This document shows, piece by piece, positions 1,848-27,095 of a DNA stretch of 64,000 nucleotides (the first letter of the stretch is position 1; each line of letters begins with the position of its first letter). The notes below the pieces were generated by a model. The model ran no database searches and was not told the origin of the DNA. It saw only the letters and a program-made list of their open reading frames with translations. Both the position numbers and the translations under genes were made by a program. Location of the stretch: assembly GCF_036365525.1 (NCBI RefSeq), contig NC_090387.1, forward strand, positions 92,545,691 through 92,609,690. The letters run 5' to 3'. This DNA comes from Heterodontus francisci. Taxonomy: Eukaryota.

Positions 1848-2485
1848 ATATTCATCTAACTACACATGAGTGCAAATTTACCCACAAAAGTACCAACAAC
1901 ACGAATTACTCTGCTGAAGCCCATTTGGCTTGTATGGACTGATACGGTGAAAAAACTGCTTCCGATGTTGAGAAAATCTAATTTATGCCTTCTACATCAT
2001 CTCTGGAGCCATGCCCGTACGTTATATATCTTAGTATTGTCACACGGGTTAGTGCAAGACACAAGGAGTATTGAGTAAATGACAGTATTTGGTTTTATTC
2101 TGACTAACTGCTATTCTTCCTTCTCCAAAGCAATTCGTTCCAGCTCCATAATAACTTGCGCCCTGACCCGGGAGAGACAAGGCAACATTTGGCCCCGATT
2201 ATGCAAATACTGACTCTAAGGTGTTAAATAGTTGCCTGTTAATTACATTTTCTCCGGTATTGTCTACAATGCCTGGCTTCTCTCTCTTACTGACTGGAAT
2301 GTCATCATCAAACACGCAGAAAATATATAGTACGCCCCACTGCACAGGAATCGGGCATGAACAGGTTTCAGCGGTCGCCCATTATAAACTGAGCAGTGTT
2401 CCGTGAAAACACAGATATAGTGAAATGGAACGTCGTGGTTTATCATTTCAAACAGAATTTGAACCAATTGTACCTCATACATGAA

Positions 2486-2586
2486 ATAAAAACAAGAAAT
2501 GCTGGAATCACTCAGCAGGTCTGGCAGCATCTGTGGAAAGAGAAGCAGAGTTAACGTTTCGGGTCAGTGACCCTTCTTCAGAACTC
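2486..2586 (-). mobile_element. Hammerhead-ribozyme-bearing short element (Penelope-like pLTR type), copy 1
   Basis: 14-bp TSD ACCTCATACATGAA (2472-2485 and 2587-2600). Minus strand begins GAGTT-CTGAAGA-A-GGGTC-ACT-GACCC-GAAAC-GTT-AACTC. Confidence 0.85.
2548..2586 (-). ncRNA. Minimal type I hammerhead ribozyme motif
   Basis: CUGANGA and GAAA core boxes; stem I GAGUU/AACUC; stem II GGGUC/GACCC; palindromic AACGUU in place of stem III. Activity untested. Confidence 0.7.
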
Positions 2587-2974
2587 ACCTCATACATGAA
2601 TGCCGTTTGGAATTCAACTCTCGACTAGCTCCAATGAAGTTTACTGTTTTGGCGCTGCTCAGTACGAATCTCCAGCGACTACACTGAAATAAAGGTTATA
2701 AACTAAACTGAAAGTTGCGTCTTTTCATTTGGACAATGGTCCAACATGCCTCAGTTAAAATAATGCAGTTAAGCACAGCAGATAGTATAACCTGCTGAAG
2801 CAATTAAGAAATCTATTCGAGGCAATCCAGAGTGTAAACACGTGTCTCACAGCTCCCAATGTTGAAAGACAAACTAAAATGTGGTGCAATAAATGAGTGA
2901 AAAAGCGACACTTTCCCCCGATCATTCCAACTGGAGTTAACCCGCATGACACTTACTGATCTGGGAGCGCCCGC

Positions 2975-3043
2975 AGAGAGAAAAACAGATTAAACGTTTC
3001 AGGTCGCTGCCGTATTTCCAGCATTTTCTGTTTCTTATTGCAG
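2975..3043. mobile_element. Degraded, rearranged copy of the hammerhead element
   Basis: gagagaaaaacagattaaacgtttcaggtc joined to the opposite-orientation tail tatttccagcattttctgtttcttatt; CTGATGA box lost. Confidence 0.55.
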
Positions 3044-3278
3044 TTTAAAGAATCCGCAGTCATTTGCTTGTGTTTCCTTACACTTGTCCTGTCACTCTGT
3101 TTGCCACTTTCTGTCCGATTGACCTGGTTTACTTTTCTTTTTTGCTGTCAGTCAATAACCAGACCCGGGATATATATATGTATGTTTTTTACATTTATAT
3201 TTCGAAAACAATTACTTTGAACAACTGTGCGAAATAGCAATTATATTTAACACATATGCTGGGCACAGGATTGATCAG

Positions 3279-3437
3279 TGTGGTCTTTCTTTTTATTTCA
3301 TCTATATTCTGTTGCTCGTGATTCTTCAAACCATACAAGATTCACTGTTATAACCACAGATTACACCTCATCTCTTCTTTCATTGCACGGCTGTTGTAAA
3401 ATTGTGGCATAACACGTCATCGTTTCATGGCTATAAA
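3279..3437 (+). promoter_or_regulatory. Candidate proximal promoter of the Ig receptor gene
   Basis: RUNX-type sites TGTGGTC (3279-3285) and AACCACA (3352-3358) and a TATAAA (3432-3437) just upstream of the leader exon. Motif matches only. Confidence 0.3.
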
Positions 3438-3489
3438 GTCACCAGAGCTACTTGCTTATTGGCAGCAAGTTGTTATTACTTTGTTCAAT

Positions 3490-3544
3490 ATGACTGTGCG
3501 CGCTGTGTTTCGGTGCATGGTGATCTGGGGGATGAGCCCGACAG
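3490..3544 (+). CDS. Exon 1 (leader peptide) of a V-C1-TM-ITIM/ITSM Ig-superfamily receptor
   Basis: ATG at 3490 (A at -3) reads MTVRAVFRCMVIWGMSPT, then a phase-1 donor ACAG|GTATTT at 3545 that matches the phase-1 acceptor of the V exon. An in-frame upstream ATG at 3427 could extend it by 21 aa. Confidence 0.7.
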
Positions 3545-3683
3545 GTATTTTCCGCAATTGCATTTTTTTTTATCCTACTTTGTCTCTATTCCTCCGAAAC
3601 TAGATCTCTCTGACTGTCAGCCATTGCAAGTCTGATCTGATATGTTGGATGTATGATTGCATGTGTTTTTCTCTCCCTGAAAG

Positions 3684-4001
3684 TTTTTGGCAATGCCAAG
3701 TTCCAGGTTTCACAAAGCCCCCAACACAAGATTGTGACGATCGGTGAAAACATTACCTTCACTTGTGCGTTCACTCCTCTGTCAGATAATTCCGAAGTGA
3801 ATGTTTTCTGGTGGAAACTCGGCCAAAGTATATTCCTGCAACCTACCGCAGACAGGAGGAGACAATATTTTATCCGGAAAGGACAGGGCACACTCCAGCT
3901 CCTTGATATTCGTTTGCAGGACGCTGGGGTTTATTACTGCGGAGTCAAACAACAAAGAAACACGGTCACAAACGGAACTGGATCAAGTGTTGTTGTTCAC
4001 G
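3684..4001 (+). CDS. Exon 2: Ig V-set domain with germline-joined J-like G strand
   Basis: Acceptor ctctccctgaaag| and donor CACG|GTAAGC, phase 1-1. Motifs: VSQSP, TFTC (B-strand Cys), VFWWK (Trp), DAGVYYC (F-strand Cys), NGTGSSVVV (GxG J-like motif). Lies within ORF 3653-4033. Confidence 0.95.
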
Positions 4002-5780
4002 GTAAGCGGCCTTGTAGAGGATGGAGTTGTTAAAATTATGTCCAAGATAATTTAAATAACTGAAAATATTAGAAGATGCGGAGAGTGATTTGTGCCGTAT
4101 TTAACTATTTTAAAGCTTTTTGTCACCTGCCTATTAATCTTCAGTATTCACTATAAAAAGCTAAAGGGAGTGTTTTCAGCGCACAAAATGTCATCACAAA
4201 TAGGGAGCGCAATGTATTAATTTCAAAACTATTAATATTACTGAAACTACGTTATAGAGAATGTTAAATGGTTTGCAAATAATGTAATAACGTTCGACTT
4301 GACTTGTATGAATCCGATCTGATCGGCTCTACACATGTTTCCACCGGTATGATTCAGAAAATTGTCATATTTATAATAAAGATTGAACGTTTGATATTTC
4401 GAAAATTGTGGATAAAGCCAAAATGCAATTCTTGAACTGATGCAAGCATTAATGTTTAACACTTACAAGCGTTCATACATCAGAAGGCAATGTCCCAAAA
4501 GCCTGATACAATTTAACGATTCTCAGTCAGCAGTGAATCCCGGGAATGAACCATCGGAACCCCTAATCTCTCAACAAATAGTACTGAGAAATAGGTGTAT
4601 TGGAACTGATACGAACTAAGCATTTCTGCATAAATGCTGCATAAAGACTTTATTATAGTAAAAAAAATGTATTGAATTGCATTTATATAGCTCCTTGCAG
4701 ATACGCAGAGCTTCAGATAACATCGTTACACGCATACATCGGTTAAATCAAAGCAGATTCAAACAATTCGAATCGAACGTTGTTAAAGCTAGATGACAAT
4801 TATTCAGCGTTCTCTATAACTTGGCAAGAGTTTCTCCATAAAGAAATCCGAGCGAAGTGTATTCACTGTTGCTTTTACTTTCCTCACCAGAAGTATCTTC
4901 AAGATCCCTATTGATAATTATATTCCAAAATATTTCAATGACTATTACAGATTTAGGATTAAAACGTTAACGTAAATATTAATTACGGATAAAAGTATCC
5001 ACGTTTCTTCAATGTTGACCTTATAATGAACAAAGAGTTCATGGCATAAGCTTAAAATGGACTTAGTTGTTGACACATAGCACTGTTTGTAACGGAAAGT
5101 TAGTTGGGAGGAGATCATTTGCACAAAAGTGTTTCGTGAGTGAGCATTTAGTTCCTCCGATTTTACAGTGAATATATTCCTGTGCTAAACACATATGCAG
5201 CTCATGCTGTTGTTGTAGCGGAGCTCGTAGCACTTTTCTCTGAGTAATTGTGGGGAGAATTTATGGACTGTTCTTCATAAATTCACGTGTCCAAATATCT
5301 AATGGACTCTGTTGAAACGATATAAAAGGCCGTTTATCTGCTGTTTACGCTGACCTTCCCCGGAAAGTTCGAAGGTGATCAAGGAAACGCCCATGAAAAT
5401 TCCAGATATATTCCAGATTTAACCAATTGACCAGGCCTGCAAGTTTCCTTCGGTATTGGTAGATTACTGCCCTGTTGTACCTCTGTATTTCAGGTCAGAA
5501 TGCAACCAAGTCCTGTTTGTTTTTATTTGTCGAATTAAAATACCCCCAGCATTGTTGGGGAAAAAGCGAGCAGTTCTCACAGTATTTTGACCAACATTCC
5601 ACTGCCAATCTTTATTAATATATACAGATAAATTTGGAATTTGTTGAGATTTCCTATTTGAATCATGGTTGTTGCATTTACCCAAATCACAAAACTGATT
5701 TATCTGAAGATAATTCATTGTATAGAGATGTTATGATGTCTGTAATAGTTGTGAGGAAACGCTCTATAAATGCAGCTGTT

Positions 5781-8180
5781 TCATAGAATCATACAAAGTT
5801 TATGGCACAGAAAGCGGCCACTTGGCCCATCGTGTCTGCGATGGCCAAAAAACGAGTCACCCAGTCTAATCCCACCTTTCAGCATTTGATACGTAGTCCT
5901 GCAGATTATGGCACTTGAGGTGCATATCCAGACTCCTTGTAAATGAGTTCAGGGTCTCTGCCTCTACTATTCTTTCAGGCAGTGAGTTCCAGACCTCGCC
6001 ACCCTCTGGGTGATTTTTTTTCCTAATCTCCCCTCTGATTTTTCTACCAATGGTGTAAATCTGTATCCCCTAGTCACTGACCTCTCTGCTAAGGTAATAG
6101 GCCCCTAACATCCACTCTATCCAGGCCCCTCACAATTTTGTACATTTCAATCAGATCTCTCCTCAGCCTTCTCTGTTCCAAGGAGAACAACCCCAGCCTA
6201 TCCAATCTTTCCTCATAGCTGCATTTTTCCAGTCCTGGCAACATCCTCGTAAATCTCCTCTGTACCCTCTCTAGTGCAATTACATCCTTTCTGTAATGAG
6301 GTGACCAGAACTGCACACAGTACTCAAGTTGTGGCCTAACCAATGATTTATACAGTTCCAGCATAACTTCCCTGCTCTTATATCCTATACCTCGGCTAAT
6401 AAAGGAAAGGATTCCATATGCCTTGCTAACCACCTTATCGACCTGTCCTGCTACCTCGGGATCTATGGACATTCACTCCAAGGTTACTCACTTCCTCAAC
6501 ACCGCTCAGTATTCTTCCATTAATCGTATTTTCCTTTGCCTTGTTTGACCTCCCCAAACGCATCACCTCACACTTCTCCAGGTTGAATTCCATTTGCCAC
6601 TTTTTTGCCCATCTGATCAGTCCATCAATATCTTCCTGCAGTCTACAGCTATCCTCCTCGCTATCTACCACACGGCTAATCTTTGTGTTATCTGCAAACT
6701 TCTTGATCATGCCCCCTACATTTATGTCCAAATTGTTAATATATACCACTAAAAACAGGGAACCCAGTACTAAGCCCTGCAAAACACCATTGGAAACAGC
6801 CTTCCAGTTGCTAAAACACCTGCCAACAAGTATCTTTTGTTTCCTGCCCCTGAGCCAATTTTGTATCCACCTTGTTGCATTTCCTTGGATTCCATGGGCT
6901 TTTATTTTTCTAACCAGTCTGCCATGTGGGACCTTGTCAAAAGACTTGCTAAAATCCATGTAGACTAGAGGCCTGCTTTAGGTCGGGAAAAAGAACTCGA
7001 CCCGAACCCAACTGAACCGCAGCTAACCCGAGCCCGACCCAGCCCGTGTCCCTCTGATTTTGCCCTGAGCCCGACCAGACTCGAACCCGCCACTACTTGG
7101 CCCGACCCGACCATCCATTTACTTCCCTTCCTGACACCAAACCTGCAAGAAGCTGCAGCTCAAGCGTGATGACGTCATAGTGACGTCACTCGCTCATTGT
7201 GCAGACTCAGTTTCGTCCCATACTCCCAGCTCAGATAAGTTTTTCTTATTTTTAATACTTACCAGCAGAGGATGGACCGTGTTTGTCTGGCCTGACCTGA
7301 CCCAGCTGGATATGGACTCGACCCGACCCAACCCGCAGCCCGAAAGCCGGCCCTGGAAGATGGGCCCGACCTGAACCCGACACATGTCATCGGGTCGCAT
7401 CGGGTTTGGGTCGGGTAGCAGGCCTCTAATGTAGACTACATCACGTGCATTACTCTCATCTATCTTCCTTGTCACTTCTTCAAATAATTCAATCAAGTCA
7501 GTCAGACAAGATCTTCCCTTAACAAATCCATGCTGATTATCTTTGATTAACCTGTGCCTTTCTAAGTGACAGTTTTTCCTGTCTCTCAGAATTGATTCCA
7601 ATAATTTACCCACTACCAAAGTTAGACTGACAAGCCTGTAATTATTCAGTCTATCCCTTGCTCCCTTTTTTAAACAGAGGTACAATGATAGCAGTTCTCC
7701 AATCCTCTGGCACCACAGTGAGGACTGCAAAATGATGAACAGACCTTCTGCTATTTCCTCTCTGGCTTCTTTTAACAGCCTTGGGTACATTTCATCTGGC
7801 CCTGGTGATTTATCCACTTTCAAGGATGTTAATCCCATTAATACTTCATCTCTCCCCATGTTTATTACATACAATACTTTACACTTCTCCTTCTTAACTA
7901 CAATATCTGCATCGTCTCCCTCTTTTGTGAAGACAAAGTATTCATTAAGAACAATACAAACATCTTCCACCCCTACACATAGGTTACCTTTTGGTCATTT
8001 ATGGGCTCTATTCTCTCCTTAATTATCCTCTTACTCTTAATGTATTGATAAAACATCTTTGGGTTCATCTTGATTTTGCTTGCCAATATTTTCATGCCCT
8101 CTCTTAGCTTTCCTAATTTCCTTTTTGATTTCACTTTCTACTTTTGAGCCTCCTCTTGGCTTTCTGTAGTATTATGTTCA
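5781..8180 (-). mobile_element. CR1/HER1-type LINE, 5'-truncated, interrupted by a hAT MITE
   Basis: RT fragments MDFSKSFDKVPH, KFADNTKI, LEYCVQFWSPHY and VDKSPGPD in ORFs 6089-6959 and 7194-7970; (TTCTATGA)-type tail near 5781. Confidence 0.92.
6966..7428. mobile_element. Non-autonomous hAT DNA transposon (MITE)
   Basis: 12-bp TIRs TAGAGGCCTGCT/AGCAGGCCTCTA; perfect 8-bp TSD ATGTAGAC (6958-6965 and 7429-7436); dense subterminal CCCGA/TCGGG repeats. Confidence 0.92.
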
Positions 8181-8340
8181 TAATTCTGAGGCATTTATGA
8201 AAGTACAAGATTACTGTCATGTAATCAAAAAAAAATGTAAAGTTAATAAAGACTGAATTAACTTTTGGAAGTAAGATGTAATAATGCTCTAAATTTAAAA
8301 TACTGAACCTATATATGATTTTCCCTGAACACCTGTATAG

Positions 8341-8652
8341 TTCCGCCGTCTACCCCAAGGATTCTTACCAAAACGCCTGATGGAAATTCAAACATTTATC
8401 TTCATCTTGTATGTGAAACGACTGAGTTTTACCCGGAGACTATTACCTTCAGCTGGTACAAAAATACAAGTAACGTTGTAACCGGAATAAAAACCACAAA
8501 GCAATTGGACAATATGGGACTGTATCAAGCTTCCAGTATTCTTCAAGAGTCACAGCCAATTCAAATAGACACTTTTTATATTTGTTTGGTATCTCATAGC
8601 ACCCTCCCGACTCCAAAATTAGCTGTTTATTTGGTGTCTACTTCTAACCCAG
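8341..8652 (+). CDS. Exon 3: Ig C1-set domain
   Basis: Acceptor cctgtatag| and donor CCAG|GTAAGA; 312 nt open, phase 1-1. Reads VPPSTPRI..LVCETTEFYPETITFSWYKN..GLYQASSIL..YICLVSHSTL, with the C1 hallmarks FYP, W and YxCxVxH. Confidence 0.93.
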
Positions 8653-9154
8653 GTAAGAAGACAACGAATAGATCTTTATCCTCAATGTTATTGGGCTGCA
8701 AGTTGAGAAATAAGGCTGAGGCAAAGACTGCCCCTTGTTATTTATGTGGAAATCGGACACTCACGCATGTAAACTCGGAAGGCTGGAACTTTGGTGTCCG
8801 TGGTTCCCTGCTACCACAACCGCCATGGGATAACGGTATCTCACCGTTTGCCTCCTGGTGTGAAGTTACTGTACTTGCCTGGTGTGATACATGTTATAGA
8901 GTTAGGAGTATCTGTAGGTCAGTGTGGCTTGTTAAAGAGAGTAGCAGTGTAAATTTGATGGGAGTGGTATTCGGTGCAAAGGGAGAAGTAAGTGCTGAAT
9001 ATTCTAAACTATGGGGTAACAGAACACAGGCAAATAATCGCACTGGGGGCAATAGAATACATGATGCCTTGACCAACACACAAGAAAAAGCAGCAGGATC
9101 CGAGGACCTTAATATAATTAATTGATTAATTAATTGATATTTAAGAATCTAGAT

Positions 9155-9408
9155 TCTTCTTTCTTTTGGGCCTCCTTATCTCGAGAGACAATGGATACGC
9201 GCCTGGAGGTGGTCAGTGGTTTGTGAAGCAGCGCCTGGAGTGGCTATAAAGGCCAATTCTGGAGTGACAGGCTCTTCCACAGGTGCTGCAGAGAAATTTG
9301 TTTGTTGGGGCTGTTGCACAGTTGGCTCTCCCCTTGCGCCTCTGTCTTTTTTCCTGCCAACTACTAAGTCTCTTCGACTCGCCACAATTTAGCCCTGTCT
9401 TTATGGCT
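9155..9408 (-). mobile_element. RTE-clade LINE 3' fragment
   Basis: C-terminal zinc finger FLCSTCGRACHSRIGLYSHSRRC, GAA-rich tail and a 10-bp TSD GAATCTAGAT (9145-9154 and 9409-9418). Confidence 0.85.
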
Positions 9409-9429
9409 GAATCTAGATATGTTTTGTCA

Positions 9430-11455
9430 AAGAGGCATAACGGCACAGAAGGAGGCCATTTAGCCCCTTGATTCCATGCCGGCTGTCTGGAGAGCAATCA
9501 AATCATTCCCATTCCCCGGCTCTATCCCCGGAGCCCTGTAAGTTTATTTCCCTCAAATGCTCATTCAATTTCCTTTTGAAATCATTCACTGTCTCCGCTT
9601 CCACCACCCTCGAAGGCAGCGAGTTCCACGTCATTACCACTCGCTGTGTAAAAAAAAAGTTCTTCCTCACAAACCCCTGCATCCATTTCCCAAACCCTAG
9701 TCATAGAGTCATAGAGTTATACAGCACAGAAACAGGCCCTTCAGCCCTTTGGCCCATCATGTCTGTGCCGGCCATCAAGCACCTAACTATTCTAATCCCA
9801 TTTTCCAGCACTTGGCTCGTAGCCTTGTATGCTATGGTGTTTCGAGTGCTCATCTAAATACTTCTTAAATGTTGTGAGGGTTCCTGCCTCTACCACCCCT
9901 TCAGGTAATGTGTTCCAGATTCCAGCCACCCACTGGGTGAAAAAATCTTTCCTCAAATCCCCTCTAAACCTCCTGCCCCTTACCTTAAATCTATGCCACC
10001 TGTGCTAAGGGAAAACGTTTCTTCCTATCTACCCTACCTATGTCGCACATAATTTTGTATACCTCAATCATACCCCTCCTCAGCCTTCTCTGCTCTAAGG
10101 AAAACAACTCTAGCCTTTTCATTCTCTCTTCATAGCTGAAATATTCCAGCCCAGGCAACATCCTGGTGAATCTCCTCTACAACCACTCCAGTGAAATCAC
10201 ATTCTTCCTATAGTGTGGTGACCAGAATGGTACACAGTAGCATTGTGGCCTAACTAGCATTTTGTACAGCTCCATCATAACCTCCCTGCTCTTATATTCT
10301 ATGCCTTGGCTAATAAAGACAAGTATCCCATATGCCTTCCTAACCACCTTATCTACCTGTACTGCTGCCTTCAGTGATCTATGGACAAGTACACCAAGGT
10401 CCCTCTGACCCTCTGTACTTCCTAGGGTCCTACCGTCCATTGTATGTTCCTTTGCCTTGTTAATCCTCCCAAAATGCATCATCTCACACTTCTCAGGCTT
10501 AAATTCAATTTTCCACTGCTCTGCCCATCTTACCAGCCCATCTATATCATCCTGTAATCTAAGGCTTTCCTCCTCACTACTTACGGCACCACAATTTTTG
10601 TGTCCTCTGTGAACTTAATGATCATACCTCCTATATTCACGTCTAAATCTTTAATGTACACTACAAACAGCAAGGGTCCCAGCACCAATCCCTGCAGTAC
10701 ACCACTGGTCACAGGCCTCCACTCGCAAAAACAACCCTCGACCATTACCCTCTGCCTCCTGCCACTAAGCCAATTTTGGATCCAATTTGCCAAATTGCCC
10801 TGGATCCCATGGGCTCTTACCTTCTTAACCAATCTCCCATGCAGGACCTTATCAAAAGTCTTACTGAAGTCCATGTAGACTACATCAACTGCTTTACACA
10901 CTATCTACACACCAATCTCCTCCTCTAAAAATTCAATCAATAAGTTAGTTAGACACGATCTCCCCCTGACAAAGCCATGCTGGCTATCCCTGATTAATCC
11001 CTGCCTCTCCAAGTGGAGATTAATCCTGTCTCTCAGAATTTTTTCCAATAGTTTCCCTACCACTGATGTTAGACTCACTGGCCTGTAATGAACCTGGTTA
11101 ATCCCTACCCTTCTTAAATAATGGTACCACATTCACTGTCCTCCAGTCCTCTGGGACTTCTCCTGTGGCCAGAGAGGCTTTGCAAATTTGTGTCAGAGCC
11201 CTTGCAATCTCCGCCCTTGCCTCACATTGCAGCCTGGGATACATCTCATTTAGGCCTGGGGAATTATTCACTTTTAAGCCCACTAAAACCACTAATACCT
11301 CCTCCCTTTCAGTGCTAATTTGTTCAAGTATATCACAATCCCCCTCCCTGATCTCTACACCTACATCATCCTTCTCCATAGTGAACACCGATGAAAAGTA
11401 ATCATTTAAAACCTCACCTACATCCTCAGGCCCCAAACACAGATTGTCACTTTGT
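9430..11455 (-). mobile_element. Two CR1 LINE fragments in tandem (short 3' end about 9430-9690; longer copy about 9700-11455)
   Basis: ORF fragments 10177-11436 ([25 protein letters not shown]); two separate 3' ends. Confidence 0.88.
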
Positions 11456-11517
11456 CATAGAAAAAAAAACACCTTAGGTTCAGTAATGTTAGAGAATTTT
11501 TAGAGAAAAAATTCTGC

Positions 11518-11680
11518 AGGCCTTACCTGGTCTGGCTTACATATGAATCTTGACCCACAGCAATGTGATTGACTCTTAACTGCCCTCTGAAATGGCCCAG
11601 TAAGTGATTCAGTTGTCAAGGGCAATTAGGGATGGGCAACAGATGCTGGCCTTGCCAGCGACAGCCACATTACATGAAAA
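11518..11680 (+). mobile_element. DeuSINE (SacSINE1-like) 3' part
   Basis: CCTTACCTGGTCTGGC..CCCACAGCAATGTG..GACTCTTAACTGCCCTCTGAAATGG followed by the LINE-derived tail. A degraded minus-strand copy lies at about 14400-14670 and a 5' part at about 53370-53552. Confidence 0.65.
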
Positions 11681-11831
11681 CAAATGTGGTTATTAACGAT
11701 AGTGATTAATGTTAAGCTTGACTAATAAGGATTTAATATTCGTGAAAATAAGTATATGTCCTAGTGGTTAAATAATAGTGTTTAAAGATGCGAATAACTT
11801 AACAATAGATACGTCAGAGTTAATAATTAGT

Positions 11832-11933
11832 AACAAAAATAAGAAATGCTGGAAATACTCAGCAGGTCTGGCGGCATCTGTGGAGAGAGAAACAGAGTTA
11901 ACGTTTCAGGTCAGTGACCCTTCAGCAGAACTT
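11832..11933 (-). mobile_element. Hammerhead element copy 2 (intron 3)
   Basis: 13-bp TSD GTTAATAATTAGT (11819-11831 and 11934-11946). Core reads CTGCTGA (A6 mutated)..GGTCACTGACC-TGAAACGTTAACTC. Confidence 0.85.
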
Positions 11934-12621
11934 GTTAATAATTAGTCATATATTTTACATCAGCTGAATTCACCGACCCAACATATCTAAATCTTAATTG
12001 GCCAATTAGTTAAAAAATATCCTACAAATAGCCAACAACTTAATTAATTAATTAAGATAGGACAGTTCAGACAGTATGTTGGTGTTGTAGCATGTGTCCC
12101 AAACTGAGAACTTGCAAAATATGTCTCTGCCTCCAGAGAGTCCGGCACAGAGTCATTGAGCTGGATTCTGAACTAGAGACATTGGGGAAAATAAGGCAGG
12201 AACAGGAATTACTGGGTATTTCTTTCCAGAGTACAGTCACACACAAGAGAAAAACATAGCTGCAGGAAGCGGAGAGCGTGCCTGTCAGTCAGCCGCGTAA
12301 GGGGAACATAAATGAGGTGATAAACAAGGTCTAGAAAATGCTGCTCCTGTACAGCAGATATAAAGTATTCATTACCTGTGAGGAAAAAGTGTAAGACTAT
12401 GGGATGACAGCCAGAATCCTCACCAAGATCGTGAAGCAGGGGGCTGTCAAAGAGAAGGAGGGGAGTGTCCAATGTCTGTAGTTATTGAGAATCTTATAAC
12501 TACGTGGATAGATTATATTCTTTGCTGTCAGGATCGAGAATCCTGAAAGGGGAGCAGTCTACCCAAAACCAGGATAAGGGACACCTCAACTTTCATATAT
12601 ATCAACTAGTGTCTGATATAT

Positions 12622-15742: not shown

Positions 15743-15856
15743 ACATCAATATTAAATTTGAATACTTACTGACTGTTGGGTGTGTGGTCAGCGGATTCTT
15801 ATGTCTAGTGCTGGGGACCATAATTGGAAAAGGATGTCAGTTACGGACCCGTGGAG
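15743..15856 (+). CDS. Exon 4: transmembrane exon
   Basis: Acceptor ttaatcttacag| and donor GGAG|GTAAGG; 114 nt, phase 1-1. Reads DINIKFEYLLTVGCVVSGFLCLVLGTIIGKGCQLRTRG: an uncharged hydrophobic helix followed by basic stop-transfer residues. Confidence 0.88.
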
Positions 15857-16299
15857 GTAAGGAATTGTTCATGATTTATATCTAACAGCCTCAATTAAAC
15901 ATAATATTCATCACCAGAAGGCCGATAAACGCGGAGTTACTGTCAGTGCATGAATTTCAAGCTTTCGTGGGACTGGCAATTAAGTGTGATTATTTGAATA
16001 CAGAAATCTTTTTTTTTACCTGTTAAGCCAAGATAGATCTTCGAGTGGTATACACAACTAAAATGAATGCATATTTAAAATGTAATTTGAATTCTATCGC
16101 GCTATTTTACGGTAACTATCAGTACAGGTACAATTTAGGGTCTGGATTTTTTTAGCTTGCAGTAGTTCAAATGCACGACAGTAATTATGATATCGAACTA
16201 TTCAGCGCCAGTCGACCGTCTGGATACATATGCACTTGCTCTGTCTAAAAAAATTGAAATTCACAGCTAAGTTTTTCCTTTCTCTTTTACGATGTACAG

Positions 16300-16337
16300 A
16301 TACAAAACAAAATGGATCTCATCATTGTGAAGACACG
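16300..16337 (+). CDS. Exon 5: short cytoplasmic exon
   Basis: Polypyrimidine tract tttttcctttctctttt..acag| and donor ACG|GTATGT; 38 nt, phase 1-0, DTKQNGSHHCEDT. Supplies the phase change needed to join exon 4 to exon 6. Confidence 0.8.
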
Positions 16338-16605
16338 GTATGTTCATATATTCCAGCCATTATGTTATTGTGTGTATATGTTCATTCTGACGTAGCATGA
16401 GATTTATGTGTAAAATAAGTCTACTTTAGTCTCAGCATGTTCTTCAAATGCCGGATGTGTTCCAACTGAAAATCAAATGAACGCTGGTCTGCTTATGTGT
16501 ATGAAGTCACAGATTGAGTACCCCACATACGCACTTCACAATGGTTCCATAGCTTTCATTTCAAACACTTTGGCCTATCTATGTAAAATTGCAAGCCTTT
16601 ACTAT

Positions 16606-16884
16606 CACCAGGGGGCATAATTTTAAGGTGATTGGAGGAAGGTTTCGGGGAGATGTCAGAGATGGTTCTTTGCACAGAGAGTGGTGGGTGTGTGGAATGC
16701 GCTGCCAGCGGTGGTAGTAGAAGCAGATACATTAGGGACATTTAAGCAACTCTTGGATAGGTACATGGATGATAGTAGAATGAAGGGTAGGTAGGTAGTT
16801 TGATCTTAGAGTAGGTTAAAGGTTCGGCACAACATCGTGGGCCGAAGGGCCTGTACTGTGCTGTACTGTTCGATGTTCTATATT
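16606..16884 (+). mobile_element. Short CR1 3' end insertion
   Basis: 9-bp TSD CTTTACTAT (16597-16605 and 16885-16893); sequence nearly identical to 38969-39250. Confidence 0.88.
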
Positions 16885-18062
16885 CTTTACTATTCGTGTT
16901 AAATTGTTTTTCTGACTGCGCTTATGTGCATCTTTCAGGAAGCTGATTTCATGGCCCAGATTTTGCAGTCAGTGGTGAAGGAATAGCATTCACAGTTCAT
17001 TAAGCCACAGACGTTTTGGTGGGCTGTTGCGGGGCAATTTATAGTAATTGGAAATTCCATTCAGTGTGCACCTTCTACTGGGGGTCATTGTCATGTGTGA
17101 ACATGGCAAGTAACCCACGTTGAAACTATCAGACTGATGAATCCGTACACCCGCCCGCAGAGCACAAACCAGAACTGTCAGTAAAAAATATTTAATTCAA
17201 ATTAAAATCGTGTGCATCAAGCAAAATCAAGAAAAAGAATAAAGATTAGATAAAGAGGGATAAATAAAACAGACAAAAAGAAAGACTAAAAACATATGCT
17301 TTCAAAGTTTCAAAAGTGATCTCCATTTTGCTGTCAGCGGTGAAGGAACAGCGCTCGCTGCTTACCTCACAGATAACTGTCTATAGATATGTTCCAAAGT
17401 TTTCCACCAACCTGGCTTGTCTTCTACCGTATAGCCCTATACTACCGTATAGTCCGTGAACAGGTCATGCTACAGCCAGGCTCCTCAGCCAATCAAATTA
17501 AAGTATCCTCACTGAGCCCGGCAGAGTCCAAACCAGTAAGGATAAAGCAGGCCATATAAATTAGATTTAAATGTTGTAGAGCAAGTGAAATAAAGATTGT
17601 GAAATACTGATGGGTTTAAGGAGGGCAGCTTACAGAGACAAACAGAAAAAAAGTAAAGAAAAATAAAGATCTTAACTGTAACATTATTGTTTTCCTGAGG
17701 GAATGAGATTCCACGTTAATGAACTTTTTGCTCAGCCCCAGAGATGTTGTTCAGCAGTAATTATCACATATTGCGCCACCAAATGGCCAATCAATCCAGA
17801 GGAGCAGTCAGTTGTGCCAGTCTGTTATTGAAATATGTATTCAAAGGATAGCAGACAATTCTGAGAAGGATGTGCTAAATCACGTGGATCACATCCTAAG
17901 TATTTTGACGAAACCTAGAAATGTGGTTGAAATTTAAGCATTGAAGGTAGCGCATAGAAGAACATAGAAAAAGTGTTAGGGATCCGAATTTGTGGTGGTG
18001 GGGGGTGGGGGGGGGGGGGCGTTAGCCTTAAAATGAGCTCTCGAAGGAAAAGATTATACAGA

Positions 18063-18206
18063 ATAAAAGCAAAATACCGCAGATGCTGGAAATCTGAAAC
18101 ACAAGCAAGAAATGCTGGAAATACTCAGCAGATCTGGCAGCATCTGTGGAGAGAGAAACAGAGTTAACGTTTCGGGTCAGTGGCCCTTCATCAGAAATTT
18201 CTGATG
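18063..18206 (-). mobile_element. Hammerhead element copy 3 (intron 5) with terminal fold-back
   Basis: 14-bp TSD AAAGATTATACAGA (18049-18062 and 18207-18220); intact CTGATGA..GAAACGTT on the minus strand; ends in the hairpin TTCATCAGAAATTTCTGATGAA. Confidence 0.85.
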
Positions 18207-18742
18207 AAAGATTATACAGAGATGTTTGTTTCGGAAAAGTGTGAACACGGTCATTCCGGGAAATGACTTGAAATCAAATTAAATTAAACTGAGAGAGAAG
18301 GAAAGGGGGCGGACAGACGCAAAGCTTCAAAATTAAATGACAGATGTCAGAGCAATTTTCTTCACAAAAGAACTATCAGAGATCTAGATGGAGTGATTGG
18401 AAATAAAAATCTGCAAATGTTTATGAAACAGCTGGATGCTGCAGTAACCTGAGGGATGTTCTGTACTGATCCAATAAGAAAAGCAAAATTACACGCCGGC
18501 ACCTGTGATCAGTAACTTTGAATATGATATACATCGGCCAATAGTTTGGAGTTCTCTGTGTAATTATGGTCATGTAAATCCAATATGGACATTCGTGTTG
18601 GGGTCTGTATAGAGTAGAACATTAGTATCAATGTTACATATCTATGGCGAGAGATACTAAGCCAGCTCCAGGTGTTTGGGATAGTAAAAGGAAGATTCCA
18701 GAACTTCAATCATCTAAGAAGGCCAACTAAACGGGTTAAAGA

Positions 18743-19047
18743 TACAGTGGCACAGTGGTTAGCACCGCAACCTCACAGCTCCAGTGACCCGGGTTCAATT
18801 CTGGGTATCGCTTGCGTGGAGTTTGTAAGTTCTCCCTGTGACCGTGTGGATTTCCGCCGGTTTCCTCCCACAGCCAAAGACTTGCAGGGTGATAGGTAAA
18901 CAGGCCATTATAAATTTCCCCTAGTATAGGTGGGGATGTGATAGGAATGTATGTGGGATCAGTATAAATGAGTGGTTGATGGTCGGCACAGACTCGGTGG
19001 GCTGAAGGGCCTGTTTCAGTGCTGCATCTTTAAATAAATAAAATAAA
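18743..19047 (+). mobile_element. HE1-like tRNA-derived V-SINE
   Basis: A box TGGCACAGTGG, B box GGTTCAATTC, V-domain GTGGAGTTTG..TTTCCTCCCACA, CR1-derived 3' end and (TAAA)n tail. Confidence 0.88.
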
Positions 19048-21142
19048 CATTGTTGGAGTAACGATATGATGGCAGATGAGAAAGGAGCCATTCTCTCAAA
19101 ATACATGGTGCCTCGTCTCATATACTGCTTTGATCTCGGGGGCAGATTGTTGGACTGAAAATCAATGCTTTGTAATGGACATTCGCAACATTTCTCAAAT
19201 TCCGGCGATCTTTCGAAGAAGCTTTGAAAGATAGCGAGGAACCTTCGGAGAATCCCATGGTCAGTGTTGTTCCGGGTTCTCTGCTTCTGCCTTTCCCTAT
19301 CTACAAGCGTGATATGTGGGAAAAATGCGATAGAGTGTCTGGTGACGGGAAACGCCAGCCTCGATAGTCTTATGGAATTAAAGCAAGATCTGTATTGTTG
19401 TAAAGTGCGAGTTCGATGTAGCGAAATGCCTCACCATTTGTCAGAAAATTGAGGTCATGTAACGGGGTGGTTCTGCTGTCCGGTGCAAAACCACTTAAAA
19501 TCAATCCGCAAGAAGACGCCGCAAGTCACAGGTGTTAATGTGGAGCGAACTGTGTGTCAGCGAACTGCAGATGGCACATCGGTCGGAGTTGGAGCGAATC
19601 AGTGGGACTGGAGATGTTACTTGATGGTGGAAGCTCGAGGCGTAAAACTGGGAGAGGACAAAGAAACTCAAGAGGCAGAGAGATGGAAAGCCTTGAGAGA
19701 CAGTGAATGAGGGAAGAAAAGAGGGATCATAGATTCTCAGACAGTCCGATTCTCTAGTTTAATAGAGAGAGCAGAGCAGAAACGGAGAATCTACTGCCTC
19801 TCTGCATAATTAGATCTTCTATAATTCTGCGTTGCCATATAAAATCGATTGTCTAAAATTCTCTACAAAATATCAGATAATTTTGAATTGCAAGATAAAT
19901 TAAAAGGGTTTGAACACTAATGAAGAGTTAAGATTTAACAATTATTTATGCGGGATTACTCGGGTCCCAGCGAAAATATCAGTTTACCATAAAGGAGATT
20001 ATTGTATTCTTAAAGTAAAATTATTGTATGGGAGAATACCGCCAGATGGTAGCTGGATCCACTTAATAACCCGAAGGTAAGTCGGAAATCGTTACAATGA
20101 CAATGAAGGAATAGGTCAGTGTCAGAATACATATATCTCGAAATAGAGAGATTGATACATGGATATTGGTAGTCTTTCTGGTGCTGGGAATATCTATGTT
20201 TATACTTCAGGCAAATCATATTTGAGTTACGCAACCGGATAATAACATCTGCCGTTCTATTTGAGTGCTCGTTAAATGTGAAAAAGGGGGCCTATTAGGT
20301 CCCGAATGTTGCATATTGTGTAGGGTCGCGTCAAAAGATTAAATGGATTCAGTGCAACTTTCAATATCCGTATCACATTGATATCCACAGTTATAATTAG
20401 TGAGATAGCATATAGCTGCAAAACGCTTTAGAACCAAAGAACCATAGAAGAAAATAAAGCACAGGAGGCCATTCAGCCCCTCGTGTCCGTGCCGGCTGAA
20501 AAACTAATTCCACCTTCCAGCACCTGGTCCGTAGCCTGGCAGGTTACAGCAATTCAGGTGCATGTCCAGGTACCTTTTTTTAAAAATGGAGGGTTTCTGC
20601 CTCCTCCACCATTCCTGGCAGTGAATTCCAAACACCCACCACCCTCTGGGAGAAAAAAGATTTTCCTCATGTCCCCTCTAATCCTTCTACCAATCACCTT
20701 AAATCTGTGCCCCCTGGTAATTGACCACTCCAATAGGGGAAACAGGTCCTTCCTGTCTACTCTAACTAGACCCCTCATAATTTTGTACACCTCAATTAAG
20801 ACCCCCCCCCCCCCACTCCGCCCCCCAGCCTCCTCTGTTCTAAGGAAAACAACCCTGGCTGATCCAATCTTTCCTCACCGCTGCAACTTTCAAGCCCTGG
20901 CAATATTCTTGTAAATCTCCTCTGCACTCTCTCCAGAGCAACTATGTCTTTCCTGTAATGTGGTGACCAGAACTGTATGCAGAACTGTGGCTGAACCAGC
21001 GTTTTGTACAGTTCCAGCATTACATCCCTGCTTTTGTATTCTATACCTCGGCCAATAAAGGAAAGCATTCCTTATGCCTTCTTCACCACTTTATCTACCT
21101 GTCCTGCCACCTTCAGGGACATGTGGATATACACTCCAAGGT

Positions 21143-21502
21143 TTAGTTTAGTTTAGTTTAGAGATACAGCACTGAAACAGGCCCTTCGGCCCACCGAGTC
21201 TGTGCCGAACATCAACCACCCATTTAGACTAATCCTACACTAATCCCATATTCCTATCACATCCCCACCTGTCCCTATATATTTCCCTCCCACCTACCTA
21301 TACTAGGGGCAATTTATAATGGCCAATTTACCTATCAACCTGCAAGTCTTTGGCATGTGGGAGGAAACCAGAGTACCCGGAGGAAACCCACGCAGACACA
21401 GGGAGAACTTGCAAACTCCACACAGGCAGTACCCAGAATCGAACCCGGGTCCCTGGAGCTGTGAGGCTGCGGTGCTAACCACTGCGCCACTGTGCCGCCC
21501 CA
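21143..21502 (-). mobile_element. Full-length HE1-like V-SINE inside CR1
   Basis: Minus strand starts GGGGCGGCACAGTGGCGCAGTGG with B box GGTTCGATTC and a (CTAAA)n tail; short TSD AAGGT. Confidence 0.9.
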
Positions 21503-23736
21503 GAAGGTCTCTCACTTCTTCTACTCCTCTCAATATCCTCCCGTTTATTGTGTATTCCATCACTTTATTTGCCTTTCCCAAGTGCATTACCTCACACTTC
21601 TCCGGCTTGAATTCCATTTGCCACTTTTCCGCCCACTCAACCAAACCATTGATATCTTTCTGGAGTCTGCAGCTATCCTCCTCACTATCAACTACACGGC
21701 CAATTTTTGTGTCATCAGCAAATTCCCCAATCATGCCTCCTACATTTAAGTCCAAGTCATTAATATATACCACAAACAGCAAGGGACCCAACACTGAGCC
21801 CTGTGGAATGCCACTGGAAACAGCTTTCCATTCACAAAATCATCCATCGACTACTACCCTTTGTTTCCTGTCACTGAGCCAATTCTGGATCCAACTTTCC
21901 ACATTCCCCTGTATCCCATGGGCTTTCATTTTACTGACCAGTCTGCCATGCAGGACCTTGTCAAATGCCTTACTAAAGTCCATGTAGACCACATCCACTG
22001 CACTACCCTCATCAATCCTCCTTGTCACTTCCTCAAAGAATTCAATTAAGTTAGTAAGACATGACCTTTCCTTAACAAATCCATGCTGACTATCCCTGAT
22101 TAATCCATACCTTTACAAGTGGCAGTTTATCCTGTCCCTCAGAATTGATTCTAATAATTTACCCACCACTGAGGTCAGACTGACTGGCCTATAATTATTT
22201 AGCCTACCCCTCGCACCCTTTTTAAACAATGGTATAACATTCACAGACTTCCAATCCTCTGGCACCTCGCCCATATCCAGTGAGGATTTGAAGATGATCC
22301 TCAGCGCATCTGCTATTTCCTCACTGGTTTCCTTTAACAACCTTGGATGCAATCCATCCAGCCCTGGTGATTTATCCACTTTCAAGGATGTCAGACACTC
22401 TAGTACTTCCTCTCTCATGCTAATCATATCTAATATTTCACAGTCCTCCTCTTTTACTATAATATCTGCTTCATCCCTCTCTTTTGTAAAGACAGAGGCA
22501 AAAAACACGTTAAGAACCCTACCCATATCATTGGCATCCATGTGTAAGTTCCCTTGTACATCTCTGAGAGGCCCTACTCTTTCCTTAGTTATCCTCTTGC
22601 TCTTAATGTACTGATAAAACATCTTTGGGTTTTCCTTGATTTTACCTGCCAATATTTTTTCGTGTCCTCTCTTTGCTTTTTTAATTTCCTTTTTTACTTC
22701 ACCCCTGCACTTTCTATACTCCTCTAGGCTTTCTGAAGTATTAAGTTTTTTGTGATCATCACAAGCTTTATTTTTCTGCTTTAACTTACCCTGAAAGCCT
22801 CTTGATAACCATGGGGCTCTAGATTTGTCTGTACCACCCTTTATCTTTGTGGACATGTGTCTGCACTGTGCCTGTAGAATCTCGCTTTTGAATGCCTCCC
22901 ACTGGTTTGCCACTGATGTTCCTTCCAGTAGCTGTATCCAGTCCACTTTTGCCAGGTTACGTCTCAGTTTTGTAAAATTTGCCTTCTCCCAATTTAGAAC
23001 TTTAACTCCTGTTTCATCTTTGTCCTTTTCCATGATTATGCTAAAACTAATTGTATTATGCTATCTATCTCCAGAATGGTCACCCATTGCTACTTCATCT
23101 ACTTGCCCAGCTTCATTACTGAAGACTAAATCTAGAATTATGCCCCCTCTCATTGGACTTGTTACGTGCTGGCTAAAAAAGTTCTCTTGAGTGCAGTTCA
23201 AGCATTTTGTCCCCTCTGTGCCCTTCACACTGTTTGTTTCCCAGTTGATATTCAGGTAGTTGAAATCTCTGACTATTATTGCCCTATAATTTTTACACTC
23301 AGAAATTTGCCTACATATATGTTCCTCTATCTCCCTCCCACTATTTGGGGGTCTGTAGTACACTCCTAGTAGTGTGGCTGCCCCTCTATTTCTGATTTCC
23401 ACCCATATGGCCTCTTTTGACAATTCATTTAGCATATCATCCCTCCTCACAGCTGTTATTGATTCCTTAACCAATAATGCTACTCCCCCCTTTTTATCCC
23501 CCTCTCTACCCGCCTGAAAAACTCGATATCCACAGATGTTGAGCTGCCATTCTTACCCCACTTTAAGCCAAGTTTCCATTCTAGCAACAATATCATGTTG
23601 CCATGTGTCTATCTGTGCCCTCAGCTCACCGGCTTTGTTCATTATACTCCTTGCATTTAAATAAATACCTTTTAACACTGCCAAATTCCTGTGCTGCACA
23701 CTTTTTAATCTTTGCTTCTTCTGTCTTTCCGAGTCG

Positions 23737-24075
23737 TAGAGAGATACAGCACCGAAACAGGCCCTTCGGCCCAACGAGTCCGTGCCGACCATCAACCACC
23801 CATTTATACTAATCCTACATCAATCCCATTTTTTCCCTCTCACATCCCCACCTTCCCTCAATTCTCCTACCACCTACCTACACTAGGGGCAATATTTTTA
23901 CAATGGCCAATTTACCTATCAACCCGCAAGTCTTTGGCATGTGGGAGGAGACCAGAGCACTTGGAGGAAACCCACGCGGTCACAGGGAAAACTTGCAAAC
24001 TCTGCACAGGTAGTACCCAGAACCAAACCGGGTCACAGGAGCTGTGGTGCTAGCCAATGCGCCACTGTGCCGCCC
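23737..24075 (-). mobile_element. HE1-like V-SINE
   Basis: Same head, V domain and tail as 21143-21502. Confidence 0.88.
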
Positions 24076-24446
24076 TTAATGATCAGGATTGCTAGCCCAT
24101 GTTGATTACTTCCCCCTCCCTAGCCCTGGCCAATTTTTTGCCTTCCGTTCCCTGCCCTGAAATTGTCCTATCTGAAACTGCCCTCAGGTTCCCATCCCCC
24201 TGCCAAGCTAATTTAAACCATCCCCAAAAGCACTGGCAAACCTTCCTGTAGGATATTTGTCCCAGTCCTGTTCAGGTGCAGACCGTCCGGTTTGTGCAGG
24301 TCCCACCTTCCCCAGAATCAGTCCCAATGCCCCAGAAATCTGAAGCCCTCCCTCCTGCACCACCTTTGAAACCAAATCTGGTTTATATAGCAATCTGAAA
24401 ACTGATGAGGAACATGTTTTAACCATATAGCTCTTTACTGTTACAG

Positions 24447-24620
24447 TCCATGGAACGAAGAGATGATAACACATTGGATTACGCTGCCCTAAATGTGAAT
24501 GGTTTAGAGAAAAGAGGAATCCGCAAGGAGAATAAAAAGTGTACGGAATATGCTGCAATCAAACTAGACCGGTACGAAAGAGATGCACAATATGCCTACA
24601 GAGAACCAGTAGTCAAATGA
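24447..24620 (+). CDS. Exon 6: terminal cytoplasmic exon with ITIM and ITSM
   Basis: Acceptor ctctttactgttacag|, phase 0. Reads SMERRDDNTLDYAALNVNGLEKRGIRKENKKCTEYAAIKLDRYERDAQYAYREPVVK*; ITIM LDYAAL at 24474-24491, ITSM TEYAAI at 24543-24560. Confidence 0.88.
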   Translation, partial: SMERRDDNTLDYAALNVNGLEKRGIRKENKKCTEYAAIKLDRYERDAQYAYREPVVK

Positions 24621-25289
24621 TTTCAGATATGGAAGATATGGAGTGTGATTGCTGGTAGATGCTGGAGCCAATTATCTACAGTTCCTGGTGTGGAATGACT
24701 CTAGTGTTACAGCAATATGAAAACAAATACAGCATGGTCCTCATTTTGCGTATCTGATAGTGCTGTATAGTAATTAGAGTAGTCGTTATTTCCTTATCAT
24801 GTACTATTGTCTGGTGATGGAATGTATGGTAATTTTTGCATCATCCATTGGTAACGAGATCATTTACAACCTTGAATGCTTAGGATAGTAAGCATTTCGA
24901 GATATTTGTGTAGCATATTTACACGGAGCACAGTTGTCTCTTTATCCAGTCAACATGAGCAAACTTCGATTTCAGAATTCTTTCCTCGTGTACTTGTAGG
25001 TTGTCATATCTCTCAAGCCAACCAATCTCCTGCTTCTCAGTAAGACTGCCAAGACAATCCTTTGAAACTGGTCTTTGGACCAGCAAAATGCTGGCAAAAA
25101 CAATTTACTTTATATATAAAGTATTACAGTGCTACAAAATATTTACAGCACAGAAACAAGCCAGTTGGTCCAACAGGTCACCCCTGTATTTATGCTCCAC
25201 CTGAATCTCCTCCCACCCTACTTCATCCAACTTCAGCAACATGTCCCTCTAATCGTCTTTCCCTCATGTATCCATATAGCTTCTAAATG

Positions 25290-27095
25290 AATACAGAATA
25301 CTGAATAAGGAGGACGTATTAGATAGGCTGTCTGTACTTAAAGTGGATAAGGTACCAGGACCAGATGAGATGCTTCTGAGGGAAATGAGGATGGAAATCA
25401 CGGAGGCACTGACCATAATTTTTTCAGTCTTCCTGAGACTTGGGGATGGTGGCAGAGGACTGGAGAATTGCAAACATTACATCCTTGTTCAAAAAGAGTG
25501 TAAAGACAAGCCCAGTAACTACAGGCCAATCAGTTTAACTTCAGTAATATAAAAGCAAAATACTGCAGATGCCGGAAATCTGAAATAAAAACAAAAAGTG
25601 CTGAAAAATATTCAACGGGTCTGGCAGCGACCTGAAAGTTCTGATGAAAGGTCATTGACCTGAAACGTTAATTCTGCTTCTCTCTCCACAGATGCTGCCA
25701 GACCTGCTGAGTATTTTCCAGCACATTTTGTTTTTATTTCGGTTTAACTTCGGTGGTGGGGAAACTTCGAAAAAGAATAATTCAGGACAAAATTGTCCTG
25801 TCATATAGACAAACGTGGGTTAACTAAATAAAGCCAGCATGGATTTCTTAAGGGAAAATCATGTTTAACTAACTTGCTGGAGTTTTTTGAGGAGTTAACA
25901 GAGAGGGTTGATGAGGGCAATGCTGTTGATGTGGTGAACATGGACTTTCAAAAGGCATTTGATACAGTGCCACACAACAGACTTGTGAGCAAACTTGTAG
26001 CTCATGGAATAAAAGAGATGGTAGCAACATGGATATGAAATTGGCTGAGTGACAGGAAACAAAGAATAGTGGTTAATGGATGTTTTTCAGGCTGGAGGAA
26101 GGTTTGTAGTGGAGTTCCCCTGGGATCAGTGTTAGGACCCTTGCTTTTCCCGATATAAATGATCTCAACCTTGATGCACAGGGCACAATTTCAAAGCTTG
26201 CGGATGATACGAAACTTTGAAGCATTGTAAATTGTGAGTAGGACAGTGTAGAACTTCAAAAGGACGTAGAGAAGTTGGTGGAATGGGCAGACAGGTGGCA
26301 GATGAAATTCAATGCACAGAAATGTGAAGTGATTCATTTTGGTAGGAAGAACATGGAGAGACAATATAGAATAAAGGGTACAATTCTAAATGGGGTGCAG
26401 GAGCAGAGGGACCGAGGTGTATATGTGCATAAGTCATTGAAGGTGGCAGGACAGGTTCAGAGAGTGGTTAATAAAGCATATAGTATCCTGGGCTTTATTA
26501 ATAGGGGCATAGAGTACAAGAGAAAGGAAGTTATGTTAAAACTATATAAGACACTAGTTTTGGCAGCCACACTTTAGGAACGACATGAGAGCATTGGAGA
26601 CAGTACAGAAAAGATTCACGAGAATGTTTCCAGGGATGAGGAATTTCAGTTATGAAGATAGGTTGTAGAAGTTAGGACTGTTTTCCTTGGAGAAGAGAAG
26701 GCTGAGAGGTGATTTGATAGAGGTATTCAAAACATGAGTGGTCTGGACACAGTAGATAGAGAGAAACAGTTCCCACTCATGAAAGGATCGAGAACGAGAG
26801 GGCACAGATTTAAAGTATTTGGTAAGAGAAGCAAAAGTGACATGAGGAAAAACTTTTTCACACAGCGAGTGGTTAAGGTCTGGAATGCGCTGCCTGAGAA
26901 CGTGGTGGAGGCAGGTTCAATTGAAGCATTCAAAAGGGAATTAGACAGTTATATGAAAAGGAAGAATGTGCAGGGTTATGGGGAGAAGGCAGGGGAATGG
27001 AACTGAGTAAATTGCTCTTTCGGCGAGCTGGTATGGACATGAAGGGCTGAATGGCCTCCATCTGCACTGTAACGATTCTGTGATTCTGTGAATTC
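25290..27095 (+). mobile_element. CR1 LINE, 5'-truncated, interrupted by a hammerhead element
   Basis: DKVPGPD..NYRPISLTS, RT motifs and a (GATTCTGT)n tail at 27074-27090; same subfamily as 59431-61526. Confidence 0.92.
25546..25739 (+). mobile_element. Hammerhead element copy 4, palindromic (two inverted arms)
   Basis: Imperfect 15-bp TSD CAGTTTAACTTCAGT / CGGTTTAACTTCGGT. Plus-strand motif AAGTT-CTGATGA-A-AGGTC-ATT-GACCT-GAAAC-GTT-AATTC at 25636-25674; the left arm is an inverted truncated copy. Confidence 0.85.

Follow-up and report, generated by a model that had tools for sequence, protein, structure and literature searches.

Minimal type I hammerhead ribozymes are known from Penelope-like elements (PLEs), in which they occur as thousands of dispersed single motifs that combine the core with an extra nucleotide after position 9, a G10.1-C11.1 pair, a palindromic 15.2-16.2 pair and a helix I of 4-5 bp (PMC4209133); the role of these hammerheads has been described as unclear in the available part of a further report (PMC8557442). 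The same features recur in a family of short inserts that we analysed in a stretch of 64,000 nucleotides from the shark Heterodontus francisci (contig NC_090387.1), here called the window. The class of sequence is already known and the shark family is a further member of it. The inserts that lie between target site duplications (TSDs) were probably made by a PLE reverse transcriptase (RT) that copied the first 100-136 nt of its RNA, priming internally and running off at the 5' end. In the portions of the published motif collection that were accessible, none of the 56 aligned motifs comes from a cartilaginous fish, the TSDs and 5' ends of single motifs are not treated, and a frequent C at position 4 sets the shark family apart (PMC4209133).

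For the anole element Poseidon, two internal RT start sites lie downstream of the hammerhead, and both strands of AT-rich DNA are nicked and extended (PMC11167929). The shark family resembles Poseidon in having two 3' ends past the hammerhead that define a tail, AT-rich targets and extension on both strands, and the shorter Poseidon inserts that result from a shorter template 5' end correspond to the run-off proposed here. The Poseidon open reading frame (ORF) starts at helix II, whereas no conserved ORF start was found in the shark copies, and Poseidon priming is described as non-homologous, whereas in two of the three short-tail copies analysed here 4 nt are common to the target and the continuation of the RNA. 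Within the accessible text of that study, no RNA reads ended at the cut site (PMC11167929).

The Penelope elements of Adineta vaga share with the shark family an optional tail (31 bp), inverted pseudo-long terminal repeats (pLTRs), junction palindromes, solo pLTRs and a putative TATA box and initiator within the pLTR, but their TSDs are 8-10 bp long and their copy number is very low (PMC3846280), whereas the shark inserts have TSDs of 13-16 bp and belong to a very large family of 100-190 bp units. Metazoan non-long-terminal-repeat retrozymes are likewise small, non-coding, PLE-related sequences with a type I hammerhead, monomer copies and long TSDs, but what defines them, as far as the accessible text goes, is a series of at least two tandem units that each hold a complete hammerhead, together with circular RNA of unit length (PMC7229834; bioRxiv 10.64898/2026.07.22.740005). 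The shark copies are single: the window contains four single motifs 7-10 kb apart, and the tandem class seen in reads restarts 3' of the core and has no second core. One chondrichthyan was sampled in the retrozyme survey, according to the part available (bioRxiv 10.64898/2026.07.22.740005). Our literature search returned no description of this shark family, or of genomic junctions at a PLE hammerhead cut site, which does not establish their absence from print.

Hammerhead inserts in the window

The four hammerhead inserts recognised in the initial annotation are all present, with pairwise identities of 86-91%; they are 100-190 bp long, and each joins a small hammerhead motif to a PLE-typical tail. 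Copy 1 (2486-2586, minus strand) consists of a minimal hammerhead (2548-2586, minus strand) and a short tail, with a single additional G ahead of the inferred +1 A discussed below. Its core is intact, helices I and II are 5 bp each, and cleavage is predicted at 2553/2552 in the numbering of PMC4209133. Copy 2 (11832-11933, minus strand; hammerhead 11895-11933) has the same arrangement, with a core broken by C at position 6 and with AAGTT at the 5' end. In copy 3, the body of hammerhead and short tail (18098-18199, minus strand; hammerhead 18161-18199, predicted cut 18166/18165) is continued by an optional PLE-type extension of 35 nt (18063-18097, minus strand). This copy has a mismatch in helix II, a helix I of 2 bp and, at its 5' end, a snap-back palindrome (18187-18208) that overlaps the right TSD by 2 nt.

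Copy 4 had been taken for a single linear unit. Instead, an antisense arm with a long tail and no hammerhead (25546-25628, minus strand) stands head to head with a sense arm of hammerhead and short tail (25637-25738, plus strand; A-U at 10.1-11.1, predicted cut 25669/25670), and in a 9-nt piece at the junction (25629-25637, plus strand) the 3' side of helix II recurs together with the GAAA core. The string GAGTT-CTGANGA...AACTC that was said to be shared by the four copies is exact in copy 1, while copies 2, 3 and 4 deviate from it. A further insert, copy 5 (approximately 2945-3075), is a decayed inverted composite of an antisense tail fused to the 3' half of a hammerhead, in pieces of 70-90% identity; a search for a TSD around it found none. 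Copies 4 and 5 have an identical inverted junction of antisense tail onto the 3' side of helix II (25613-25640 and 2990-3011) at unrelated loci, which may reflect a recurrent switch point or an inverted parent in common.

A TSD of 13-15 bp had been proposed for every copy. Exact repeats of this length do flank copy 1 (2472-2485 and 2587-2600, 14 bp), copy 2 (11819-11831 and 11934-11946, 13 bp) and copy 3 (18049-18062 and 18207-18220, 14 bp), but the duplication around copy 4 (25530-25545 and 25739-25754), which lies within a CR1-type LINE, is either 10 bp and exact or 16 bp with 2 mismatches. Exact repeats of at least 10 bp were obtained in 4 of 400 random placements, all 4 of them in the tandem arrays at 30.6-32.0 kb. 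An empty site for copy 4 is provided by two paralogous LINE copies (28215 and 60807), which join the same flanks with gaps of 0 and -1 nt. The TSDs are 64-85% AT, compared with 56% for the window. The first 4 target bases that equal the RNA continuation past the short-tail end lie at 2482-2485 in copy 1 and at 25739-25742 in copy 4 (25530-25533 in its left TSD), which suggests that microhomology may have assisted priming at the 3' junctions of these two copies.

In hammerhead numbering, helix I measures 4-5 bp in the copies, or 2 bp in copy 3, and the remaining parts are the core, a single extra A, GAAA and U16.1-U17, with a helix II of 5 bp closed by a 3-nt loop and a helix III that is a loopless C-G palindrome. 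This is the minimal type I architecture that had been recognised at the outset, and it agrees with the published PLE consensus (PMC4209133); the extra nucleotide between 9 and 10.1 and the loopless palindromic 15.2-16.2 pair are found in all four copies. The CUGANGA and GAAA core is intact, together with its NUH site, in copies 1, 3 and 4, and the C at core position 6 of copy 2 is reported to lower activity (PMC3088659, as far as accessible). A relaxed descriptor of the minimal hammerhead matched exactly these four sites in the window, and in 10 of 10 shuffled windows there were 0 matches with a helix I of at least 4 bp and a helix II of at least 5 bp. Rfam at E<=5 gave five weak matches elsewhere in the window, none of them to a hammerhead family and none on the copies, an outcome that neither detects nor refutes the hammerhead motif.

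The initial annotation had allowed cleavage after GUU or, in another register, UUA. The latter is unlikely, since helix I closes directly on the GUU register, and C-G-U-U is found in 15 of the 56 published PLE-type motifs (PMC4209133). Copy 1 on its own folds into helices I and II at -10.7 kcal/mol, and for its dimer the double hammerhead is predicted at -19.5 kcal/mol as against -30.4 kcal/mol for the best duplex. Judged by these energies, the double hammerhead has no advantage over a plain duplex, and an active dimer is not shown by folding; dimeric cleavage is plausible from the literature.

Ends of the family in sequencing reads

Family-wide evidence was drawn from reads or contigs aligned to copy 3 in runs X1, X21 and X22 (organism A) and X6 (organism B). 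The window sequence may itself come from X1, and this run is not independent. The family was detected in all four runs and in both organisms, with 57,479 of 11,989,820 reads aligned in X21, 12,775 of 13,967,370 reads in X22, 68,453 of 26.5 million contigs in X1 and 5,813 of 692,910 in X6, and it splits into several subfamilies. The depth in X21 peaks at about 44,000, compared with 0 on the outer flanks of copy 3. Rough densities are one copy per 41-47 kb (X21) or per 164-197 kb (X22), both from selective libraries, and contig depths were excluded as a measure of copy number.

Among the variants listed for X21, beyond which there are 80 more, position 7 varies in 9,074 of 17,962 reads, the loop in 4,533 of 23,997, position 10.1 (G to A) in 5,711 of 21,284 (27%) and position 11.1 (C to U) in 15,033 of 27,211 (55%); reads below 82% identity were excluded, so other core positions may also vary. 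CpG variants of helix III, at 13-16% of X21 reads, are likely due to DNA decay. The pair 10.1-11.1 is G-C, G-U or A-U among the copies, and A10.1 occurs together with U11.1 in copy 4 and in one loose-end consensus of X1 and X6. Covariation is suggested for this single pair, from the copies and from reads pooled across loci.

Behind 18196, some members of the family run on into an upstream sequence that they have in common; in X21 it is carried by the largest class of loose ends (13,671 reads, agreement 0.67). By an eye count, the X1 consensus at this position (828 contigs, agreement 0.39) agrees with it in 22 of 30 letters. Copies 1, 2 and 4, the three informative copies, all leave the upstream sequence at one identical base, just before AGTT, and the loose-end consensus of a subfamily breaks at the same base (743 contigs in X1 and 60 in X6). 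The upstream part is most simply the rest of a pLTR. The parent sequence at the boundary reads CCAGTT, which we take to fit the initiator consensus with +1 at its A. If the RNA starts at this A, helix I would begin at +1, the predicted cut would fall after +33, and the 3' ends would lie at +101 and +136.

The 3' ends form two classes 35 nt apart: one is marked by the loose ends that pile up at 18062/18063, the other by copies 1, 2 and 4, whose ends fall on or close to the equivalent of 18098. PLEs carry an optional tail of 30-40 bp according to the accessible part of PMC8557442, and the spacing matches both this tail and the two RT start sites of Poseidon. Opposite-strand and go-back joints are present in reads, and inverted, partial-tandem or palindromic forms in copies 3, 4 and 5; the joints in opposite orientation, which occur in the reads as well as in copies 4 and 5, match the inverted pLTRs with junction palindromes of Adineta (PMC3846280). 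The connection to PLEs that had been drawn earlier is supported, and the reads add to it the two 3' ends and the inverted joints, which had both gone unnoticed. The tail also contains two pyrimidine tracts ending in CAG (e.g. within 18086-18165, minus strand) that resemble splice acceptors, and intronic copies on the sense strand could be exonised.

Origin of the short copies and of a 68-nt tandem

In the mechanism that we propose, a promoter in the parent's pLTR would start the RNA at the initiator-like A, 4 nt before the core, and helix I would thus be transcribed from +1. An RT/GIY-YIG protein would nick AT-rich DNA on both strands and prime inside the RNA at +101 or +136; the two classes of 3' end are observed, and the enzyme is proposed on the model of anole Poseidon. 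With a monomeric RNA as template, the cDNA would run off at +1 and leave a tiny promoterless copy, and the short copies are likely to be dead ends. The palindromic, inverted and tandem forms would arise by snap-back, as in copy 3, by priming at both nicks, as in copy 4, and by re-initiation; in copy 4 the arms with the long and the short tail lie on opposite strands, as would be expected of priming at both nicks. The hammerhead would cut after +33, as a dimer or with the help of a protein, and a minority of templates would then start at +34. In motif, tail, inversions and TSDs, the family appears at the sequence level to behave like the end module of an endonuclease-positive PLE.

Several observations weigh against this proposal. 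An autonomous parent or PLE protein was not found by word-based and HMMER searches with two translations. The start site is deduced from the copy ends and the initiator consensus, and the upstream sequence in X22 shows agreement over the first four letters only. X21, a capture library, may give too much weight to a few loci. Position 4 is changed from U to C in 7,041 of 15,928 X21 reads (44%), and C at this core position lowers activity in vitro (PMC3088659). As described in the available text, the equivalent boundary in D. virilis Penelope is a splice acceptor (PMC4209133), and the hammerhead of the anole element lies well inside the transcript (PMC11167929).

No PLE ORF was seen in the window, in agreement with the initial annotation: 149 reading frames compared with Pfam (146 of the 315 frames of at least 45 aa left after LINE masking, all of at least 61 aa, and 3 LINE controls; the remainder are nearly all of 61 aa or less) gave no GIY-YIG domain, and the only RT match was a LINE control. 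The four matches of the HMMER search were one repeat protein, which is spurious, and three short ORFs without a Pfam domain, one of them a catshark gene model. This hypothetical gene model (P0005) includes a translation of the family's tail and is likely spurious or an exonised repeat. Pattern scans gave 0 matches in viral contigs and 0 in metagenome contigs, and none in plasmids and phages; the sole match in a prokaryote genome, 23 nt in an actinomycete contig without flanking similarity, was attributed to chance. The collections scanned are mostly prokaryotic or viral, and their failure to yield a partner says little about the shark genome. An ORF starting in the core as in the anole was rejected, the frame from the core ATG meeting a stop in copy 3, and two further translations yielded no long protein. 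A tRNA-derived SINE was also rejected: ARAGORN found 0 genes, Rfam gave no match on any copy at E<=5, and the head of the insert is the hammerhead itself.

The initial annotation had favoured a self-standing, non-autonomous family mobilised in trans, which the present data do not show. In such a family, which we consider rather unlikely, a PLE protein would copy in trans the transcripts of masters that have no ORF and consist of promoter, hammerhead and tail. The very high copy number and the several subfamilies would suit such an arrangement; pLTRs alone can be mobilised in trans in Adineta (PMC3846280), non-autonomous PLE derivatives are described in the accessible parts of two reports (PMC8557442; bioRxiv 10.64898/2026.07.22.740005), and the 68-nt tandem class considered below may be an amplified derivative. 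However, the short copies have neither the upstream sequence nor a tRNA-like head and could not renew themselves, any masters would have to exceed the inserts in length, and the four copies have no diagnostic common flank. Since part of the family extends upstream and the short copies lack this extension, run-off from a longer parent fits better.

A reading of the 5' boundary as a 3' splice site, on the pattern of D. virilis Penelope, is improbable; the short copies would then arise from spliced RNA with a tiny first exon or from a break at the junction. The upstream consensus does end in CAG and contains a branch-point-like pentamer, and in the published case the end of the intron falls on the 5' end of helix I (PMC4209133). 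The copies, however, retain the AG and have no longer common leader, copies 1 and 2 meeting their TSDs one base beyond the AG, and for this reason an RNA start is preferred to a splice acceptor. In addition, the pentamer lies about 11 nt from the AG, which is closer than usual for a branch point. Less probable still is random 5' truncation of long PLE copies, in which the common start would be a stalling hot spot or chance and the hammerhead would play no part: the majority of minimal hammerheads in print are single motifs that have been attributed to truncated PLEs (PMC4209133), hammerhead mutants leave insertion in vitro unchanged (PMC11167929) and read depth falls gradually across the motif, but this fall partly reflects the divergence of subfamilies from copy 3, all three informative copies break at one base, and the RT would have unwound helix I before it reached the breakpoint.

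The reads also contain a tandem class. The best supported of the joints listed, with 179 weaker ones beyond them, leads from 18167 back to 18113 with 13 letters between (2,134 X21 reads), and together with two neighbouring joints it accounts for 2,314 X21 reads, or 4% of those aligned. It is also represented by 17 contigs in X1 and 2 in X6, and by 0 reads in X22. The 13 letters are tail positions 18100-18112, so that the period is 68 nt, exactly the distance from position 1.1 to the short-tail end. Owing to two shared letters, the breakpoint is ambiguous among +32, +33 and +34; in the +34 register the usual short-tail end is joined to the predicted 5' end of the cleaved RNA. An RT that ran off a cleaved template and restarted at the internal site would produce such a 68-nt tandem.

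It is a tentative suggestion only that the genome keeps a fossil record of PLE RNA ends, in which most short copies would mark a capped start at helix I, and the 68-nt junction would mark germ-line cleavage by a minimal hammerhead, with the RT restarting at an internal site from run-off cDNA. The small number of contigs, the possible over-weighting in X21 and the absence of the joint from one run count against cleavage, and the same picture would result from one ancient microhomology switch that was amplified as a subfamily. Three registers among about 100 positions, for one event, are only suggestive. If true, this reading would provide in-genome evidence for cleavage by a PLE minimal hammerhead in vivo and would show directly how partial tandems (pLTRs) come about. 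Three further features near the cut site were not counted as evidence of cleavage: a snap-back joint at 18168-18168 (31 reads), which is centred on the helix III palindrome and is 3 nt off the cut site; a joint of 18096 with 18166 (69 reads), which touches position 17 and is ambiguous in orientation; and an X22 loose end at 18167 (768 reads), which looks like one locus.

The value of the family is as a test bed, as clean TSDs and roughly one copy per 40-200 kb allow 5' ends to be counted locus by locus. Independent insertions with a peak at +34 would demonstrate cleavage in vivo; a peak at +1 would locate the promoter and account for the single hammerheads that litter PLE-rich genomes.

Surroundings of the inserts

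The window is LINE-rich vertebrate DNA with immunoglobulin-domain exons, and approximately half of it matches LINE reading frames by tblastn, mostly of CR1 type. An immunoglobulin V-set exon (3641-4030, plus strand) ends in a J-like G-x-G, and a C1-set exon (8319-8650, plus strand) follows 4 kb downstream; these exons resemble germline-joined V-C1 or NCR3-like immune genes. Both copy 1 and copy 5 are situated not more than about 1.1 kb upstream of the V exon. A degenerate L1/Tx1-like LINE with a ZCCHC3-like ORF1 and an AP endonuclease occupies 33267-36308 and approximately 39600-40700, interrupted by CR1-type sequence. Two minisatellites are also present, one with 21 units of 27 bp (30617-31187) and one with 10 units of 40 bp (31557-31970).

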